From Octopus vulgaris (lineage: Eukaryota), in assembly GCA_951406725.2 (NCBI GenBank), contig OX597815.1, positions 131,316,001 through 131,380,000 on the forward strand: a stretch of DNA of 64,000 bases, read 5' to 3'. The notes under the pieces were generated by a model. The model worked only from the letters and a program-made list of their open reading frames with translations, was not told the origin of the DNA and ran no database searches. Numbering within the stretch: the first letter of the stretch is position 1; each line of letters begins with the position of its first letter. This document shows, piece after piece, positions 4,035 through 59,334 of the stretch. Made by a program: the position numbers and the translations under genes.

Positions 4035-4072
<38 letters not shown>

Positions 4073-4217
4073 GACGGGCTTCTTTTAGTTTTCGTCTACC
4101 AACTCCACTCACAAGGTTTTGGTCGGATATAGTTGAAGACGCTCGACCAAGGTGCCACGCAGTGGGACTGAACCCAGAACCATGTGGTTGATAAGCACAG
4201 ACCCACGCCTACGCCTA
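3372..4217 (-). mobile_element. SINE family B with PLE-like insertion in its internal (TA)n
   Basis: Tail 3372-3570 and head 4070-4217 match the other copies; insert at 3690-3950. Confidence 0.8.
3821..3871 (+). ncRNA. Minimal hammerhead ribozyme, G3:C8 core variant
   Basis: TTTGTCA GTGAACA G GTTGT-loop-GCGAC GAA AATATT T TGACAAA; perfect 7-bp stem I. Confidence 0.7.
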
Positions 4218-4501
4218 TATATACATTTCTTCTTGACTTAGCTTGGACAGCTAAAGACAGAGAAGTTAATTGATTCTCCCAAACTTCATACATTCTGTAG
4301 TTACTTAAAGTATTCTGCGCCATTACCGGCGTTTGATACATTCTAGTTGCGAAGGCTTTCATCCAAGGTCAAAAACAATTCTTCAGTTTTAAATTTCACT
4401 CAGTGATAGGATTGTTCTTCTTTTATCTATTTTCACCATGTTTAATGTCAGTGTAAAGTCTTTTGTCGTTATCGCTTTACCAAAGCATTCTGTAGGCCCA
4501 T

Positions 4502-12200: not shown

Positions 12201-12510
12201 ATTGGCATATAAAATAAGAGAACAAATTTTATTTTGCCCAGTACAAATGAAATAAGCAGTAATGCTTCTTTTTTTCTGACAACAGAAAATACACATCAAG
12301 TACCAAATACACAGAATCACATAAGTTTAAAAGATTACTGAACAGCACTACTGAGTAAATTTCAACTAGACGCAGGCATGGGTGTGTGTTAAGAAGTTTA
12401 CTTCTCAACCAAATGGTTTCAAGACCAGTCTTCTAATACACCTCCGAATATTTCGTTCTTGGATATGGTTTGCAAGATTCTTTATGTCAGTTCGTATGTT
12501 TAAGCATATT

Positions 12511-12783
12511 CTGTTGTGTCTGGGGAGAGTCGTTTTCTTTTTGTGCTTTATAATTTATCACACTCACCGGCAAAATTTCCACTTATTCCTTATTTTTATT
12601 TTCCTAAAATTTCCGAGGCGTCTTGCAACATTTTTCAATAGTCTTTAAGAGTCAAGACTAACAAAAAGGTTGCAAGACGCAACGAAAATTCTAGGAAAAA
12701 TGAAAATACGGGATAAGTGGAATTTTTACCGGTGTGTTAAATTATAAGGCACGAAAAGAAAATGACTCTCTCCAGACACAACA

Positions 12784-12784
<1 letters not shown>
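12511..12784. mobile_element. Foldback of two inverted PLE-like terminal repeats, each with a degenerate HHR
   Basis: ~130-bp arms CTGTTGTGTCTGG...TAGTCTT / AAGACTA...CCAGACACAACAG; same family as 16395-16525. Confidence 0.75.
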
Positions 12785-12843
<59 letters not shown>

Positions 12844-12887
12844 TATATATACGCAGGAGTGGCTGTGTGGTATGTAGCTTGCTTACC

Positions 12888-14839
12888 TCGCTTACGCATA
12901 CGTAGGGTTTGTCAGTCACATACGAGAGTGAACACTTTCAAGATGTGCTTGGAAGCCGTCTTGAATTAAAGAACCGTTGAAGGCGCGACTGCAAAGTAGG
13001 CATTTGTCTGTTGCGGTCGCGCCGAATGATTCACTTAACTGTGAGAATTGTTGTTTTGCTGAACGTGTCTCGATACCAAAATTTGGAAAATTTATGAATT
13101 CGTGGAGAAATTTTTGTGTGCTGCGTCGGCAAACTGGAGCACCTGTATTCTTGTAGATCAGCTTAGTGGCGGAATTGTGTTGCCGTGAATTACATTGTCT
13201 TCCTTCATTCTTTTTCTCTGCTCTGTCTTTCTGTTCTTTTTTGTGTTTTCATTGGACTTTTTATTTGGAACATTTTGGATTTTGTATTGAACATTTTTCT
13301 TTATTTTATTTTATTTTATTTTTCTTTATTTTTTTCTTTCGCAAGCATGGCAGCAAAAATAAAAATAATATTGTGACCCTCAAGCAGTAGGAAAAACTTT
13401 AATGAGAGAACGGTGGTGTTGAGGACATATTCTAAGTCCCTCGACACCATCACTGTGTTCTCTCAGGCAGACATTGAATAGGAGTTGGCAGAAGTATGAG
13501 GGCTGCCACCCTGAATAGAGCCTGAATAGATAGAAGACACTATACTTCGGGGTCGGGGTGGCAGCGGAGCCAAGCAGTTTAATGTCAAAATTCTACCTGC
13601 GGCTGATTGGGTGGGGTCGAAGGAAGTTTTGACCCTGTGGACCCAATCAGCCAATAATCTGTTTTTTCCAGATTTTTTGAGGATGGCCGGGTGCAGGTAA
13701 CCGGTGATTCTTGAGGGTCACCCCCTACCCAGGTGTCATCGGTGCCTAGAGCCTGGCCATATAAAGAAAAACTGTCCTCATGAACAAAGCAAATTCCTGG
13801 AGCAGTTGATGGAGACTTCTGTAGAAGAAGGAACAAAGGCGGCCGAGGAGGTGGAGGACTCCTCAAAGAAGGGCCGCAAGATGAAGGTGAGCAATAATGG
13901 GTGCTCACCGAAGGATCCTAGGGATGAGGCGAATCTCCCGGTCACGGAAGAGACGCACCCTCTCCCAGTTAAGAAGAAAAACTGAGGAAGAGGAAGAAAA
14001 ACGGGACATTGCCGGCAGTCGGTGACATAGCACCGGAATGTCCCGGAACCTTGGCGGGAATTGTGCCGCTAACGGTAGAATTGACTACCTCGACCCTGGA
14101 GGAAGACAAAGAGGTAGAAAAGGTAGTGGGAAAACACTATAAGGGAATATCTTTAACTTTCACACAAGAACCCGAATGGCCTCCGCAGTTAGCTGTGGAG
14201 GCCATAACGTTGCCCGTGATACGTAGGCTGGAGGGACTCAATGAGGAATATCGCTTGTGGGCGGACGCCGCCGACTCGGAACCCGCCTTGGTTTTAAATA
14301 AGGCGTGGGTGATGGCGGAGTATACGGGCACAATCGATGTTGGGGAGGAAAACTGACAATAGGTTGAAAAGCCTCAGTGTTATAATGATTAAGTGTGTAA
14401 TAGGCTCAACGCCTCAATTTGTAAATGGACTATTAAGTCCAAAAATTGTAAAAAGGGAAGTAAGAGTTTCAATGCTTCGGTTTGATTTTTTGTGTAAAAA
14501 TAATGTTTTAATTTGTAAATGGACTACTGAGTCCAATAATTGCAAAAACGGAAGTAAGAGGTTCAAGAAATCCGTTTGTTTTTTTGTGTTAAAAATAATA
14601 ATGTTTCAATTTGTAAATGGACTATTAAGTCCAATAATTGTAAAACTAAAGTAAGCGGTTCAATAAAATGGTTTGTTTTTTGTGTAAAAAAATAATGTTT
14701 GAGAGAAGCAAAAAACCGGCGGGTGTTTTTTGTCTTCCATTAATATCATTTTATTTCATCAATCATCTCATCAATGTTTCTTTCCAGCCCACAAGCTACT
14801 CTGTATCATGCCTTTATGGCAAACTATTTTTAAATAAAT
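12888..14839 (+). mobile_element. Tx1/L1-like ORF1-only non-autonomous retroelement inserted in a family B SINE
   Basis: Disrupted ORF1 13347-14356 with CHRCLEPGHIKKNC knuckle; AATAAA at 14833; TSD TAGC(T/C)TGCTTACC at 12875-12887 and 14840-14852; SINE head 12853-12887 resumes at 14840-14977. Confidence 0.75.
14415..14700 (+). repeat. ~96-bp tandem repeat x3 in the element 3' UTR
   Basis: AATTTGTAAATGGACTA(T/C)T(A/G)AGTCCAA recurs near 14415, 14510 and 14607. Confidence 0.9.
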
Positions 14840-15012
14840 TAGCCTGCTTACCGGCCACATGGTTTCGAGTTCAGTCCCATTGCGTGGCACCTTTGGCAAG
14901 TGTCTTCTACAATAGCATTGGGTCAACCAAATCCTTGTAAGTGGATTTGGTAGATGGAAACTGAAAGAATCCCGTCACACACACACATACACACACGTAC
15001 ACACACATATAT

Positions 15013-15183
15013 AAAAGGTAGTGGGAAAACAATATAAGGGAATATCTTTAACTTTCACACAGGAACCCGAATGGCCTCCGCAGATAGCTGTGGAGGCCAT
15101 AACGTTGCCCGTGATACGTAGGCTGGAGGGACTCAATGAGGAATATCGCTTGTGGGCGGACGACGCCGACTCGGAACCCGCCT
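15013..15183 (+). repeat. Near-identical duplicate of ORF1 segment ~14118-14288
   Basis: Only about 4 mismatches over ~170 bp. Confidence 0.9.
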
Positions 15184-16095: not shown

Positions 16096-16484
16096 ATAGA
16101 CGATAAAAGAGCAATTTCATATACACCTATAGCTTAACTATTCGTCAGTCAAGTCATTATATTATATAATTTAATAATCGAAACTCATTAACTTCAGTAA
16201 TTTGCTAAGGCTATTTTTAATTAAACCCGAACAATATTTTATGTTTAGAGTTTAAAATATATGCAAAACGTTAAATAATAATTGGTTTAATAACTGTAGA
16301 AATTACATTAGTTTTAGAGGTTTCCTATTCTTAATCTTTATTAAAATGAATTCTAACAGTATAATATATAGCGTGTCGCATAATAATAATTTTATTGTGT
16401 CTGGAGTGAATAATTCTGTTTTAATGCCTTATTAATTAACACACCCACGGGTTCGATTTCCACTAATTTACTTGTTTATTTTTT

Positions 16485-16521
16485 CTAAAATTTTCGTTGC
16501 GTCTTACAATCTCTTCAGTAG
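16485..16521 (-). ncRNA. Minimal hammerhead ribozyme, canonical C3:G8 core
   Basis: Minus strand CTA CTGAAGA G ATTGT AAGAC GCAAC GAA AATT T TAG. Confidence 0.7.
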
Positions 16522-16669
16522 TCGTTGACTTTGTCCATTATTGGAACTGCGTTCTTTCTGATTGTTTGTTTGTGCACATGTGTTTGCGTCAGTGTGCATG
16601 TGTATACACATCCACACTGTATGTCTTCTATATTTTTAATTATTATAAACCTACCACTGAGGAGCGAGC

Positions 16670-24141: not shown

Positions 24142-24663
24142 TCATTTGAAATCCTCCTTGTTGCTGTTGTTGTTGTAACCATTCTTATTCCATCGAAGTG
24201 CTTTTTTTTTGTTCTCATTATAACAAATGTGAATGGTATTTTATCAATTCTCCGGGGGTCTTCTCTAATTGGAATTGAATAGAGCGGGTTGAAAAACAAC
24301 GCCTATTCAACCAGAATATGAAGATATCATTGCCACTGGATAATGACAGCTGCTGCAGCGAATTTTAGTTATCCATTTCAGTTATTTGTTTAGTGATAAA
24401 GATCAGAAATCTTTTTGCCAAAAATTGTTTCTATAACATTCGTAAAGACATTAAACTTCTCTTAATCACTATTACTCTATGTCTGAGTAAACATTCCGAA
24501 GGTTAATAATTATGAATGAATAGAAAAGACCTCTCTCAAAATGTATCTTGTAAGGAAACAGTTATCTTCATGCTTTGTTCTGGCTTTTCTAGAATACAAA
24601 TGTTTGAATCCGTAAATTTAGTATTTCTTATAAAAAAGATTATTGCATTTAAAATTACTTCCT

Positions 24664-25460
24664 ATGATTTAAGCTGAATTATCGGAGGAGACTGCAATGA
24701 TAACTAAATCATTTAAAACCAAGCAGAGGTCGATCGGAGTCGAAAAAGGGGTCAATATTGATCTCAGTGTCATCATGTGATTATCCAAAGTGTCGATGTT
24801 CCACCCGAATCAATATTTCCTGTGATTTAAGCCCAATTATCGGAGGAGACTGCAATGATAACTAAACCATTTTAAACCAATCAAAGGTCGATCGGAGCCG
24901 AAAAAGTGGTCAATATTGATCTCAGTAGTTATCCAGGGTGTCGATATTCCACCCGTATCAATATATCTTGTGATTTAAGCCCAATTATCGACGGAGACTG
25001 CAGTGATAAGTAAACCATTTTAAACCAATCAGAGGTCGATCGGGTTGGTTTAAAATCTTTATCGACCAATTAGAGGTCGATCGGAGCCGATAAAGTGGTC
25101 AATTTTGATCTCAGTAGTTATCCATGGTGTCGATATTCCACCTGTATCAATATATCTTGTGATTTAAGCCCAATTATCGAAGGACACTGCAGTGATAAGT
25201 AAACCATTTTAAACCAATCAGAGGTCGATCGGAGCCGATAAAGTGGTCAATATTGATCTCAGTGGTTATCCATGGTGTCGATATTCCACCTATATCAATA
25301 TATCTTGTGATTTAAGCCCAATTATCGACGGAGACTGCAGTGATAACTAAACTATTTTAAACCAATCAGAGGACGATCGGAGTCGACAAAATGGTCAATA
25401 TTGATCTCAGTATTATCATGTGGCTATCCAAGTTTTTGATATTCCACCCGTATCAATATA
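24664..25460. repeat. Tandem repeat, 5 units of ~148-189 bp
   Basis: TGATTTAAGC restarts at 24664, 24823, 24971, 25160 and 25308. Confidence 0.95.
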
Positions 25461-31787: not shown

Positions 31788-31860
31788 TCTGTGTGTGTGT
31801 AATATCTCTATAGGCACAGGAGTTGCTGCGTGGTAAGTAGATCGCTTACTTCCCACTGCG

Positions 31861-34570
31861 CATGAGTTGTTTGTTGTCAGTGTGCGCATGCTTTGTTGTG
31901 TGTATCACTCACGGAGATAGCCGGGTAGCCGGTGAAAAAGTTGCCCAGCTGTAAGGTAAGGCTTTTGTTTTTTTGGGGTCCAGTGGGGGGTTTGTTGTTT
32001 GTGGTAAAATTTTTACAAGCAAGGAGTCCTCACTGGATTCTGGACTCTGGCCTGCCTGCAGTTGGGATAAGACTGTTCACATTAAGTGAATATTTTTCTC
32101 ATTGTAAGAAGTGTTGTTTGGTGGGCGTGTCTAGCCACCAAAATTTGTGAAAATTTTATAAAATTCGTTTGAAGGATTTTCCTGTGTTCCTGCTTCTGGA
32201 CCCTGAGTACATCATTGGAGTACCAAGTTGTGGAAAACCTGTCGGCCAGGATTACCAGAGGCCGGAAGAGTATTAGCCGTGATTTGAATCGTCTTCCTTC
32301 GCTCTTTTTCTCTGCTCAGTCTTTCTGTTCTTTTTGTTTTGTGTTTTTGACTCTGTTTAGACTTTTTGGTTGAGCATTTTTTGGACTGTCCTTTCTTTTC
32401 TGCAAGCATGGAAAAAAAAGCTAAACACTGCGTCGGAGTGGGAGATTGTAGTTTCCAAGCAGTGGGTAAAAGAGTTCAACGAGAGAACGGTGGTGTTGAG
32501 GACGTATTCCAAGTCTCTCGACACTATCACTGTGTTCTCTCAAATTGAAATTGAGAAAGAGTTAGCAGAATATCTGCTAGCTATTAAGTTTATTGCAAGG
32601 GGTGTCAAATATGCAACGGTGTGCTTGCTATTTGACACCCCTGAGGAGGCTCCCAATTTTGCGAGTCAGCCCTTAGAAGGGAAAAAAATTCTGTTTCTTC
32701 CCCCATATGGTAGGAAGAATTTAACAAGATCTTGGGTATGTGGGCTGCTACCCGGCATAGAACCCGAGTGGATAGAAGACACCATCCGCCGGAGTCTAGG
32801 TGGCAGCGGAGCCAAGCTCCTTATGTTAAAATTCTGACTGCGGCTGATTGGGTGAGGTCGAAAACAGTTTTGACTCTGTGGACCAATCAGCCAATGATCT
32901 GGTTTTTCCAGATTTTTTGAGGACGGCCTGTTCTAAATATCCGGGGATTCTTGAGGGACGACCCCCCCCCCCCAAGTGTCACCTATGCCTGGAAACAGGC
33001 CACATTAAAAAGAACTGTCTCCAGGACCAAGGTAAGGTCCTGGAGCTGTTAATAAAAGTGGCGCACCCCACTCCCCCATTGGAAGGAGAGATGGATGGAG
33101 TTAAGGAGGTGGAGACCTCATCGAAAAAAGGAAAGAAAAGAAAGAAGATGGTAACAATGGTTGCCCACCGAACGGCCCTAACGCTGCAGGAGGGGAGGAA
33201 GATCCTCCGGATAAAGCGAAGGTACCACATCCTCCCGTAGCAAAGGAGAGAAAAAGAAAAAAGAAAAATAACGGGACATTTTCGGCGGTTGATTGTTCAC
33301 TGCCGGCATGCCCTGAAACTTTGTCGGTGGTAAGTGTGCCACTGACAGAGAAAACTGTGGCCCCTCCCAGAGCGATGAGAGATGATTTTGTTATCTTCTC
33401 CTATAAAGGAGGGGCAATACAGAGTTTCTTAAGGAGGCTAGAGGGCCGGAGGGAAAAGCCCATTCCCTGGACTGAAGACCCGGATTGGCCTCCACAGGTG
33501 ACTACTTGGAAGTCGATATGTTCAGGGTGATGGACTCCTTCCCGAAGAACCAGTTTAAGTTCGCCTTCTAGGGCGTCGTCAGAGCTAGGATGCTTGCTCT
33601 GAAGAACAAAGGAGTTGGAACCGCCCGAGAGGCCCGAGTGGTGGAGGTGCAACGGGGCAACAAAGCCACGATTAGGTCTCTGAAAGATGAACAAGGGCGT
33701 TAATTACTTGAACTCGAAGGGATGTGTGAGGACTTTCAACAACACTTTGCCCGGCAATGTTCTCAAGGAGAATCTGTGCGTCGACGAGGAACACTTGACC
33801 CACCTGTTCAGGACAACTTTCGGGCTGGAACCTATGGAAATTCACTAGAAATCCCTGGCCTGGCAGTGCTATCGGGAAGCATTTCCCGTTTGGGATAAGC
33901 TCTACAAGCACGGTTCGAGATATTTGCCTGAGATGCGTGTCAGAGCGACGAAACTGTTCTGCATGCATAAGTGGACCTGTGGGCTTATGCCGCACTGCTG
34001 CTGTCACGTGTGAGGCGAATTCGGTTGTCGACCGACTCTATCGTAAAAATTGCTCTGCCACCATCCCTTAGCCGAGAAGGCAAGGCAATTTTCGTCGTAC
34101 TAGTGGCTATGGTGAAAGAATGTGCGTGGTGGACTCGAGCGAAAGGTTTAGAGACAAACACTTTCCTCTCTGGCCATTCGTTCATCAACTTTTTCAAGTA
34201 CCACTTGAAAAGGAAGGTGAAAATAGAAAGGAAAGTTTTGTCTCATGAAAGATTCAATAAAAGGTGGGTGAATGTAGCAAAGGTGGTATGCGCGAATGAC
34301 GAAACCACTTTGAGTATGATCTTGTAAATCCAAAAAAGAGGGAGAGAGTACTTTGCTCTCATGTGTTTTTTTTCCTCTCTGCCTGAGGTTACCGAGATCT
34401 TTTTTCGAAGGCTTTCCTTTCCACGGATAAACCTAATCTGTTTTTTACATTTTTACTTTGTTCTGTGATACATGATACCTTTTGATCGGATTTTTTTCTT
34501 TTTCTTTCGAAAAGACAAGCTCTACATTGTATTTTGTCCTCTCTGTGTTCAGCCCTGTGTGGCTAATAAA
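31861..34570 (+). mobile_element. Tx1/L1-like element: ORF1 (CCHC) + ORF2 C-terminal remnant, no EN/RT detected
   Basis: ORF1 from 32408 homologous to 13347 (EFNERTVVLRTYSKSLDTITVFSQ; CHLCLETGHIKKNC); 33971-34327 resembles Tx1 ORF2 C-terminus; AATAAA at 34565 then (TATC)n; preceded by SINE B head 31812-31860. Confidence 0.75.
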
Positions 34571-34575
34571 GATAT

Positions 34576-34635
<60 letters not shown>

Positions 34636-36069
34636 ATATTTATCTATCTATCTCTCTATCTGTCTGTCTGTCTGTCTGTCCGTCCATCTATCTGTCTGTC
34701 TGTCTGTCTGTCTATCTGTACACATGTACATACGTACTCACGAACATCAGTTATGTCGCTCCACGTTTCACATACAACCAAAGTCTATAACAAAAACACC
34801 ATATAATTCGCTTGCAACTGCGCTACAGTACAGTACTACAGAGGAAGATCGTTACCCATAAGATCCATAGAAATTTACTGAGCCGTTACTGCTGGGTGGC
34901 TTCCACCAAACACCAAATTGTTATGTAACATTGCCACCCAAAACCAATCGATACCGTCAGCGATGAAGCACTACACCACCTGATATACTGCAACCAGTTT
35001 TGTTGGATACTTACTTAGAGAATCTCTAACAATTTGTAGCAGATTTTTTGTCCAACCAAAATGGCTTCTCAGGCAGTTTCCGGAACAAAAATTCATATAC
35101 TTTCTCCATCAGTTACTTCCATTTTCTCAATAAACACAGTCGACACAATTCCTCTTAAACTTTCTCCGTTACTCTCCTTACATATGCACACATGCCGAGT
35201 TTAAAAACGACTTATAATTGATTCCCACCAATCCAGTCACATGCTTTGACACGTTTGCGTTTATCAATCTTCCTCTCCAGAGAATCCTTCTTCTGAAATT
35301 ACCTGTCCGTCATGTTTAAAACCTCATATGACTTATGAATGTTTAAACGACACAACATCCGTCTATGAAGGGCAATGACTCAAGCCTCCTAAACAACACA
35401 CACACACATAGATGCACACGTATTTACATACAAGAACACAAACAAGTGAACAAGCTAAATGTACTCTTATCCACATATAGACACACAGACACAAACTCAC
35501 ACACATACATGATACATGCTATGAGAGGCCTAATTTAGGACCTTAGTGTGTTTCGGCACTGGGAAAGAGATACACGTATGAACATTAAAATACGAAGTAA
35601 TAGAATAGAAGTGTGGGCATACATATACATACACACAAATACACACACATAAGAATATATACACATATATACACACAATTGTACATATACTCATGGGGAT
35701 GCAGACATACACACACACACATACACACACACACATACACACACACACATACACACACTCACCTTCAAACAGAAACACAGACACAAACATACTCACACAC
35801 ATACACTCACATACGCACCCGCACACAGACCCAAATTACATGTATTTATATACACATACATATTTGTGTGTATACGTGCGTACATATATATATATATATA
35901 TATATATATCGAGTATGGTCATTGCACGAAGCTTAACTGTTATTGGTGCTGTGATCGAATGTGACTTTATTTGCTTTTTAAGGCTACAGCCAGCCATTCA
36001 GTTGAGACTCACAGCACTATCAACAATCATGAACAATGTTGTTATCGTGCAATACCTGTACAAGAAGTG

Positions 36070-57747: not shown

Positions 57748-59035
57748 CGAGGGACGTTCAATAAGTAATGCGTCTGACCCACTTGCAGTTGTTTGATCTA
57801 GCTGAAATTTTGCATGTGCAATCATTTATATCTCTATAGAGTAAGTGGCAAATTACAGCTCTGAATTAATTGTGGTTTCTTGATTTACAGGTGTTTGAAC
57901 CGAGTCAAGTGTGAAATGGAGCCTGTTGAGTGTCGAGCAGTGATCCGGTTTTTGTATTTGAAAGGACGCACACCACGGGAGACTTTTGATGAAATGAAAG
58001 TAACTTATGGTGATGATGCCCCATCATATGACCCTGTAAAACGCTGGCATCGTGAATCCAAACATGGTCGGAACTCTGTGGAAACAGCTCCCAGATCTGG
58101 TCGCCCCCTTCTGCCATTGATGAGGCATCTGTCCGTGAAGTTGAGGCTGCCATTTTGGAAGATCGACGCATAATTATTCGCCAAATAGCCCATGAGGTCA
58201 AGATTAGTACCGCGTCTGTGGAAACTATCATTCATGACCATTTGCATATGCAAAAGGTGTCTGCCAGATGGATTCCCAGGCTGCTCACGCCTTTCCAGAA
58301 GCAAGAACGCGTCGAGTGCTCGAGGGTGAATTTGCAGATGTGACAAGATGAGTCAAAATTTTTCAAAAGACTGATTACACAGGATGAAACCTGGGTCCAT
58401 CACGATGATCCAGAGACCAAATCCCAGTCAATGTAGTGGAAGCACCGTGACTCACCCCCTCCAAAGAAGGCAAGGGTGCAGCCCTCCGCTGGCAAGGTCA
58501 TGCTCACAGTCTTCTGGGACCTGGACGGAGTAGTGATGACAGATTTCCTGGCAAAGGGTACCACAATTGCAGGAGCCTATTATGCTTCACTTTTGAGGAA
58601 ATTAAGAGAAGTTATCAAAATCAAGAGGCGGGGCAAGATCAGCAAAGGCATCCTCCTCCTGCAGGACAACGCTCCGGTCCACAACTCGCTTGTCGCCAGA
58701 TCAGAAGCACAGGCATATGGCTATGAACTCCTCCCCATCCCCCTACTTTCCTGACCTTGCACCCTCTGATTTTCACCTCTTCCCAATCATGAAGTTGTTT
58801 TTGAAAGGAAAGCGTTTCCCAGATGATGTAGCCTTGATTTCTGAAGTCACGTTGAGGTTGGAGGACCAAGCTGGTTTCTTCTACAAAAACGGTCTCCAGA
58901 GCCGCATTAAACGATGGGAGAAATGCGTAACTCTGGGTGGTTCCTATGTAAAAAAAGACTAATAACTGTGCCAAGTTTCGTTGCTCTACTGCTATGGGAA
59001 GTGGGTCAGGGGCATTACTTATTGAACGCCCCTCG
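57748..59035 (+). mobile_element. Full-length inactive mariner (irritans/Himar1-like)
   Basis: TIRs CGAGGGACGTTCAATAAGTAATGCGTCTGACCCACTT / AAGTGGGTCAGGGGCATTACTTATTGAACGCCCCTCG, TA TSD; transposase 57916-58962 with RSGRP, WIPRLL, DETWVH, QDNAPVH, PDLAPSDFHLF. Confidence 0.95.
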
Positions 59036-59334
59036 TAGTTGCCAGTTTTCCCTTGTTGGCGAAGGAAGCCGGTATGACAATAATATATCTGTCTCCATCT
59101 ACTGGTTGCATATCCATGAGGTTTTGTAAATTCCATTTTGTTAATTGTATACATTACAACTATTACATAATTGCGACCTCCCATAAACAGCTGTCGAGTT
59201 AAAAAAAAATACATATTTTCCCTTTAGTTTTCTGTATTTTTTGTACTCTTTGTCAAAACAAATCTATTTGTGAATATATAAATGTATCTATGATTGTACA
59301 TGTGTGGTTATCTTCTGGATGTATTTAGTCTCTG

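Follow-up and report, generated by a model that had tools for sequence, protein, structure and literature searches.

Insertion of a LINE-derived sequence into a SINE head

Is the LINE-derived sequence that interrupts a SINE in this 64-kb window of octopus DNA (the window being the whole stretch analysed) a mobile unit in its own right, and was the SINE its preferred target? Two related sequences bear on this question: an insert at 12888-14839, hereafter copy 1, and a second family member in the same window at 31851-34572, hereafter copy 2. Copy 1 measures 1,952 bp and interrupts its SINE after nt 38, leaving a 5' portion (nt 1-38) at 12850-12887 and the remaining portion (nt 39 onward), followed by a (CA)n tail, at 14853-14976, both on the plus strand. 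The initial annotation of this locus gave the insert length correctly as about 1.95 kb but started the SINE at 12853, whereas our alignment begins it at about 12850. The best duplication between the two ends of copy 1 is 13 bp long with one mismatch: TAGCTTGCTTACC at 12875-12887, corresponding to SINE nt 26-38, vs TAGCCTGCTTACC at 14840-14852, both on the plus strand. This is the target-site duplication (TSD) that had been proposed to split the SINE head, and its right half does begin just after the AATAAA at 14833-14838, as had been noted. Removing 12888-14852 restores a SINE that aligns over its full length to five other copies in the window (73-84%), and the 13-mer of the TSD occurs at five places in the window when up to two mismatches are allowed, every one of them inside a SINE copy. 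Copy 1 therefore has both a TSD and a restorable empty site, the marks of a non-LTR insertion.

Judged from the letters at the two ends, the TSD may instead span 16 bp (12872-12887 and 14837-14852). This longer version has three mismatches between its halves, and one and two mismatches against an intact SINE copy. Copy 1 also starts with eight bases that look like the last part of its TSD. The window contains 11 SINE loci in total, and raw pairwise divergence among SINE copies ranges from 0.16 to 0.29 (15 pairs). Matched against general box patterns, an A-box-like motif lies at nt 11 in two of four copies, including the 5' portion upstream of copy 1, and a B-box-like motif near nt 54 in two of four. 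Neither Rfam nor ARAGORN reported a tRNA or other RNA family at threshold, the SINE included. A further SINE at 4072-4222 seemed headless and was considered as a third insertion; it proved to be a complete SINE with a 12-nt deletion.

A decayed type I ORF1 is the sole gene of the insert

Copy 1 opens with a 5' UTR (12888-13346, plus strand), which has a T-rich tract ahead of the ATG, shows homology to copy 2 (blocks at 13040-13103, 81%, and 13170-13493, 68%) and is covered by contigs of all four sequencing runs described below. ORF1 follows at 13347-14356 on the plus strand and is a dead gene. It contains six in-frame stops (13374, 13479, 13497, 13512, 13527, and 13698), a frameshift near 13975, and, relative to its homologues, a 165-bp deletion at 13493/13494 that corresponds to residues 55-109 of the related protein P0001 and takes out most of the RNA recognition motif (RRM). 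The CCHC ORF1 reported earlier was thus right as to its zinc knuckle, found at 13731-13781 on the plus strand (Pfam PF00098, E 4.7e-4; 20.6 bits, just below the curated cut-off of 20.8), but the frame that carries it is not open.

The domain make-up of ORF1 was read from P0001, an uncharacterised Octopus sinensis protein that is 65% identical to copy 1 and 77% identical to copy 2, and the sole match under E 1e-10 of ten matches among 1.84 billion representative proteins. Its structural model is confident at about residues 20-100 only (mean pLDDT 53), and residues 14-109 match RRM domains, the best being the RRM of La (Foldseek E 8e-4; VIA Z 8.6, rmsd 2.8, 81 aligned, all for the predicted structure). 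The Atlas neighbours of ORF1 are likewise RRM/CCHC proteins. By this model, ORF1 is of type I, combining an RRM with a CCHC knuckle. The fold matches listed for P0001 include no L1 ORF1p chain, a result that excludes nothing. No homologues of copy 1 ORF1 turned up among proteins 372-2000 aa long, and sequence searches of the PDB had no match with E below 0.5. Searches with P0001 returned no related loci in metagenome, genome, and viral contigs, and DNA patterns of the family had 0 matches in each of these three contig sets. A separate Octopus sinensis protein model, the K02A2.6-like P0005, contains a 40-aa piece of copy 1-type ORF1, which suggests, from the sequence, a copy of the ORF1 family nested in another element.

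Downstream of ORF1, the 3' UTR contains three tandem units of about 94 bp (14414-14700, plus strand; copy number 3.0 for a 94-bp unit). A TGGACT/AGTCCA hairpin occurs in every unit. Folding z-scores of these hairpins (-0.5 to -1.4) are not significant against shuffles, and, since two of the three units have an identical stem-loop, the repeats provide no covariation evidence. The 3' terminus (14810-14838, plus strand) was identified by reading the sequence and consists of a GCC...GGC mini-hairpin at 14810-14820 and the AATAAA; the poly(A) tail is gone. No stop-free stretch longer than 98 aa exists in this 3' region in the three plus frames, and copy 1 has neither ORF2 nor a reverse transcriptase (RT). 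The earlier description of an insert with ORF1 as its sole gene and a repeat-bearing 3' UTR is therefore borne out.

Between the SINE tail and a CT/CA-rich low-complexity stretch, and directly adjoining the tail, lies a 174-bp duplicate of ORF1 14115-14288 (15010-15183, plus strand; 97% identical). It is far closer to the ORF1 of copy 1 than other family copies are, and represents either a local duplication or an assembly artefact.

The ORF1-to-repeat junction recurs in other copies

We looked for further copies in contigs of sequencing runs. Parts of the copy 1/SINE stretch were present in 12 of the 24 runs listed, from four organisms, with no run containing more than 26% of its words. Contigs of four of those 12 runs (X1, X4, X5, and X7, representing three organisms, A, B, and C) were aligned at 80% likeness, and in all four, contigs covered all 30 bins of the stretch. 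The aligned pieces listed are other copies, given that roughly 10-20% of their letters differ from copy 1. Five of the 32 contig pieces listed cross from the end of ORF1 into the 3' repeats, extending 31 nt or more to either side of the stop: three come from X1, one from X5, one from X7, and none from X4 (records 5, 6, 7, 22, and 30; organisms A, B, and C). They are 12-17% different from copy 1, and none has ORF2 at the junction. Since contigs join the ORF1 stop directly to the 3' repeats, the ORF1-only layout is common to other copies. A search for exactly such a shared junction had been suggested in the initial annotation, and its outcome supports the proposal made there of a non-autonomous, ORF1-only, multi-copy element.

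Other contig data extend this picture. Between 50 and 60 contigs per run cover position 14360; records 6, 23, and 8/24/31 tile 14270-14823, and further pieces extend from the 3' repeats to 14823, where three leave the alignment with 27-55 nt more. At the position of the first ORF1 stop, other copies in runs X1 and X7 have a sense codon. No piece among the 32 listed spans the whole element. One of the nine pieces that reach the end of ORF1 (record 16) departs at 14350 and continues for 61 nt that do not align, and the summed depth at 14388 is about one-sixth of that at 14360 in three of the four runs and one-quarter in X5; together, these two observations indicate that other 3' forms may exist. 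At the outer ends of the insert, the reference included the SINE halves, so that the tables of joints and loose ends were dominated by SINE contigs. Two indirect signs of SINE flanks in other copies nevertheless come from these ends. In X1 and X7, contigs that differ from copy 1 at 12900-12906 terminate after a further 48-55 nt, close to where the SINE begins. The letter at 14839 differs in six to eight contigs per run, which have the G of the SINE at 97-100% of depth, a signal that SINE-only contigs could give equally.

A diverged relative adjoins a second SINE head

The initial account of the family in this window missed its second member, copy 2. Its plus-strand layout begins with a SINE head at 31813-31850, colinear in sequence alignment with the SINE to nt 37-38, followed by a 5' UTR and a frameshifted ORF1 (31851-33530; ATG at 32408) in which the RRM region is intact. 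Compared with copy 1, ORF1 is 79% identical in the best block and the 5' UTR blocks are 68-81% identical. The next stretch, 33540-34327, holds a linker-like piece and a C-terminal piece of the form C-x2-C...ET..H, which, judged by L1/Tx1 ORF2 motifs, look like remnants of an ORF2 linker and cysteine-rich C-terminus. These pieces matched no zf-RVT or RT in Pfam, only unnamed Atlas clusters, and nothing in the PDB, and the C-terminal piece had no homologues among proteins of 208-2000 aa. Neither an endonuclease (EN) nor an RT was seen in copy 2, which may be a member of a second non-autonomous family. Several large internal deletions are apparent at 33530-33800, from the end of ORF1 to the ORF2 linker and from the linker to the C-terminus.

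The 3' UTR of copy 2 (34328-34717, plus strand) closes with a GCC...GGC hairpin plus AATAAA, after which comes (TATC)n. This end resembles its counterpart in copy 1 (a score as high in 8 of 2000 shuffles), and the first 48 nt of the two copies are weakly alike (52 of 5000 shuffles score equally). On the 3' side of copy 2, neither a SINE body nor a TSD was found; the body was possibly lost between two microsatellites. The 10 nt after the head break equal SINE nt 61-70 exactly, so the junction may be at nt 70 after a 22-nt deletion, or these 10 nt may be filler copied from the target.

How long the two copies have been separate can be read from ORF1. Over the 132 aligned codons that remain once the initial 13, those with gaps, and stops are excluded, dS is 0.56 (0.36-0.91) and dN is 0.13, giving a dN/dS of 0.23 (bootstrap 0.13-0.37). 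These values suggest that copies 1 and 2 come from long-separate, separately active lineages. The dN/dS includes time spent as autonomous ancestors and is thus no proof of selection on ORF1 in an ORF1-only line. The SINE heads of the two copies differ at 9 of 38 positions, which is within the range for pairs of SINE copies and also similar to the difference between their 5' UTRs (101 of 409 aligned columns); by eye, the heads share no substitution relative to the majority of the other SINE copies.

Candidate targeting of the SINE head

Each of the two family members in the window is preceded by a SINE head in the same orientation, and each head is broken at nt 37-38, in copy 2 on the 5' side only. 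By simple arithmetic on the 11 SINE loci, the chance that a second insertion falls at the same nucleotide is about 1e-4, and the chance of a hit at any position within nt 1-70 is about 6e-3. SINE targeting, which the initial annotation raised as a possibility from copy 1, is thus more likely than its author could know, since a second relative adjoins a SINE head at nt 37-38. It falls short of proof, because copy 2 has no SINE body on its 3' side and flanks are readable for two copies only. On balance, we favour the reading that copy 1 is a dead copy of a multi-copy ORF1-only family, probably placed in the SINE head by a related LINE that presumably prefers this site.

Under this reading, the family would descend from an L1/Tx1-type LINE that lost ORF2 but retained its 5' UTR and ORF1 along with the terminal ~70 nt at the 3' end, and a related full LINE would supply the enzymes that mobilise the ORF1-only element in trans. 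The transcript would begin within the element's 5' UTR or further upstream and would not be a Pol III product; Pol III transcription from the SINE head seems unlikely, given that the A- and B-box-like motifs now lie on either side of the insert, in which runs of four or more T occur 25 times. Reverse transcription would start at a nick made by the partner's endonuclease in the bottom strand, at SINE nt ~22-25, and a top-strand cut after SINE nt 38 would yield a duplication of 13-16 bp. Copy 1 would then have decayed after insertion. A broader scheme, which we offer tentatively and hold to be somewhat doubtful, would posit an old octopod L1/Tx1-type LINE with an endonuclease directed at the A-box-to-B-box interval of a highly abundant SINE, and alongside it an ORF1-only satellite that has a selected ORF1 and shares the target. 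Such a three-level parasitism would split the Pol III promoter of the SINE with each insertion.

The most serious competing explanation, unlikely in our judgement though it deserves weight, is that one ancestral LINE landed in a SINE head, or template-switched onto one, and that its descendants either carry the head along or move as a SINE-insert-SINE composite, so that the junction records one event. The presence of a head in copy 2 without a SINE body would follow naturally from carriage of the head, and heads derived from U1/U2 are described for crocodilian Tx1 families (accessible text of PMC4494074). A single ancient capture is also compatible with the divergence between the two heads, which equals that between the 5' UTRs. 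Set against this are the true two-sided TSD of copy 1 within a complete SINE, the ORF1 dS, which at 0.56 exceeds the pairwise divergence of the SINEs, and the lack of a common derived change in the heads. The composite version, in addition, leaves copy 2 unexplained, because the SINE body is missing there.

We consider it improbable that the family has no target, inserting widely among abundant SINEs so that the two matches to a SINE head reflect chance or a weak, T/AA-like preference at the nick site. SINEs are the largest class of transposable elements (TEs) in octopus genomes according to the accessible part of PMC8967140, 11 loci lie in the window, and the junction of copy 2 is ambiguous; what argues against it is that both known members (2/2) sit in a SINE head in the same orientation, at the chance levels given above. 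Very unlikely, finally, is a one-off copy in which a full LINE lost ORF2 by a post-insertion deletion, with no ORF1-only family behind it: large deletions do occur here (165 bp in the ORF1 of copy 1, several in copy 2) and record 16 departs at 14350, but five contig pieces from three organisms, 12-17% from copy 1, have the ORF1-to-repeat junction in common, and copies in X1 and X7 read a sense codon where copy 1 has its first stop.

Relation to known elements

Tx1L of Xenopus inserts into Tx1D by means of a sequence-specific endonuclease and generates a TSD. The octopus insertion resembles it in being an insertion into a non-autonomous element with a TSD; Tx1L, in contrast, is an autonomous element that targets a DNA transposon. 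Tx1 membership of the octopus family is plausible from its RRM and CCHC ORF1, with no RT surviving and no APE-type endonuclease region seen in either copy. An ORF1 of this type I, though not unique to Tx1, is consistent with Tx1 in non-mammalian animals, as stated in the accessible text of PMC5203782.

The initial annotation called the element HAL1-like, which holds as an analogy but not in the strict sense. HAL1 (half-L1) of mammals is a non-autonomous LINE derivative that encodes ORF1p alone and has several independent origins (PMC5753468, in the part available), so that both are ORF1-only and non-autonomous. HAL1 originated from the L1 of mammals, in which ORF1 is typically of the Transposase_22 type (PMC5203782, same excerpt), whereas the octopus ORF1 combines an RRM with CCHC, has its closest named relative in an Octopus sinensis protein, and sits at a candidate fixed target.

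Closer parallels for the target come from crocodilians. Within the accessible text of PMC4494074, Tx1-Mar is found in Mariner-N4_AMi, Tx1-9_AMi in Harbinger, and Tx1-8_Crp and Tx1-4_AMi in LTR elements, and Tx1 families with microsatellite preference and with snRNA-derived heads are also described. The likeness lies in the use of an abundant mobile element as preferred target, in non-autonomous partners (SINEU) that use the same target, and in the small-RNA-derived heads of some families. In octopus, by contrast, the target is a SINE head and the passenger a 2-kb ORF1-only element, and the crocodilian clade rests on RT phylogeny (same text). Dada DNA transposons insert into tRNA genes, where their targets cluster around the A box and the anticodon arm (PMC8869645, available part), which recalls the octopus insertion site between A- and B-box-like motifs; they differ in their DDE transposase mechanism and in targeting true RNA genes.

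LINE targets on record in the accessible part of PMC4640811 are rRNA, spliced-leader, tRNA, transposon, microsatellite, and telomere sequences. For octopus, the available portion of PMC8967140 gives SINEs as ~40% of TEs and L1-Tx1 among the old coleoid families, and does not mention targets. A literature search, mostly by titles and the starts of abstracts, found no SINE-targeting or ORF1-only Tx1 element in octopus; Repbase, Dfam, subscription papers, or supplements may contain one. ORF1-only LINE derivatives and transposon-targeting Tx1 elements are thus known separately, and we did not find their combination with a SINE target in print.

If confirmed, the SINE head would join the known targets of Tx1-type LINEs, and an ORF1-only LINE derivative would be on record for a mollusc, where the literature searched has such elements for mammals. 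Many copies across at least three organisms would permit a direct test, through within-family dN/dS, of why half-LINEs keep ORF1. It would also become possible to test whether a LINE that disables SINE promoters affects SINE expansion in octopus genomes. The system is of interest to transposon specialists and is not of a new kind.

Other features of the window

Upstream of the split SINE, at 12495-12800, lies a long nested inverted repeat, MITE-like, with arms 84-86% complementary and a partial relative at 16395-16530. About 65 bp ahead of it, at 12370-12430, a SINE head of another subfamily stops near nt 60. A fragment of a LINE ORF2 occupies 71-598; it matches zf-RVT (E 1.8e-6) and is unrelated by blastn to the family of copies 1 and 2. 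A tandem array of 148-189-bp units, 93-95% alike, extends over 24656-25460. On the minus strand, a 194-aa stop-free stretch in a GC-richer region (58639-59223) is possibly part of a DNA transposon.
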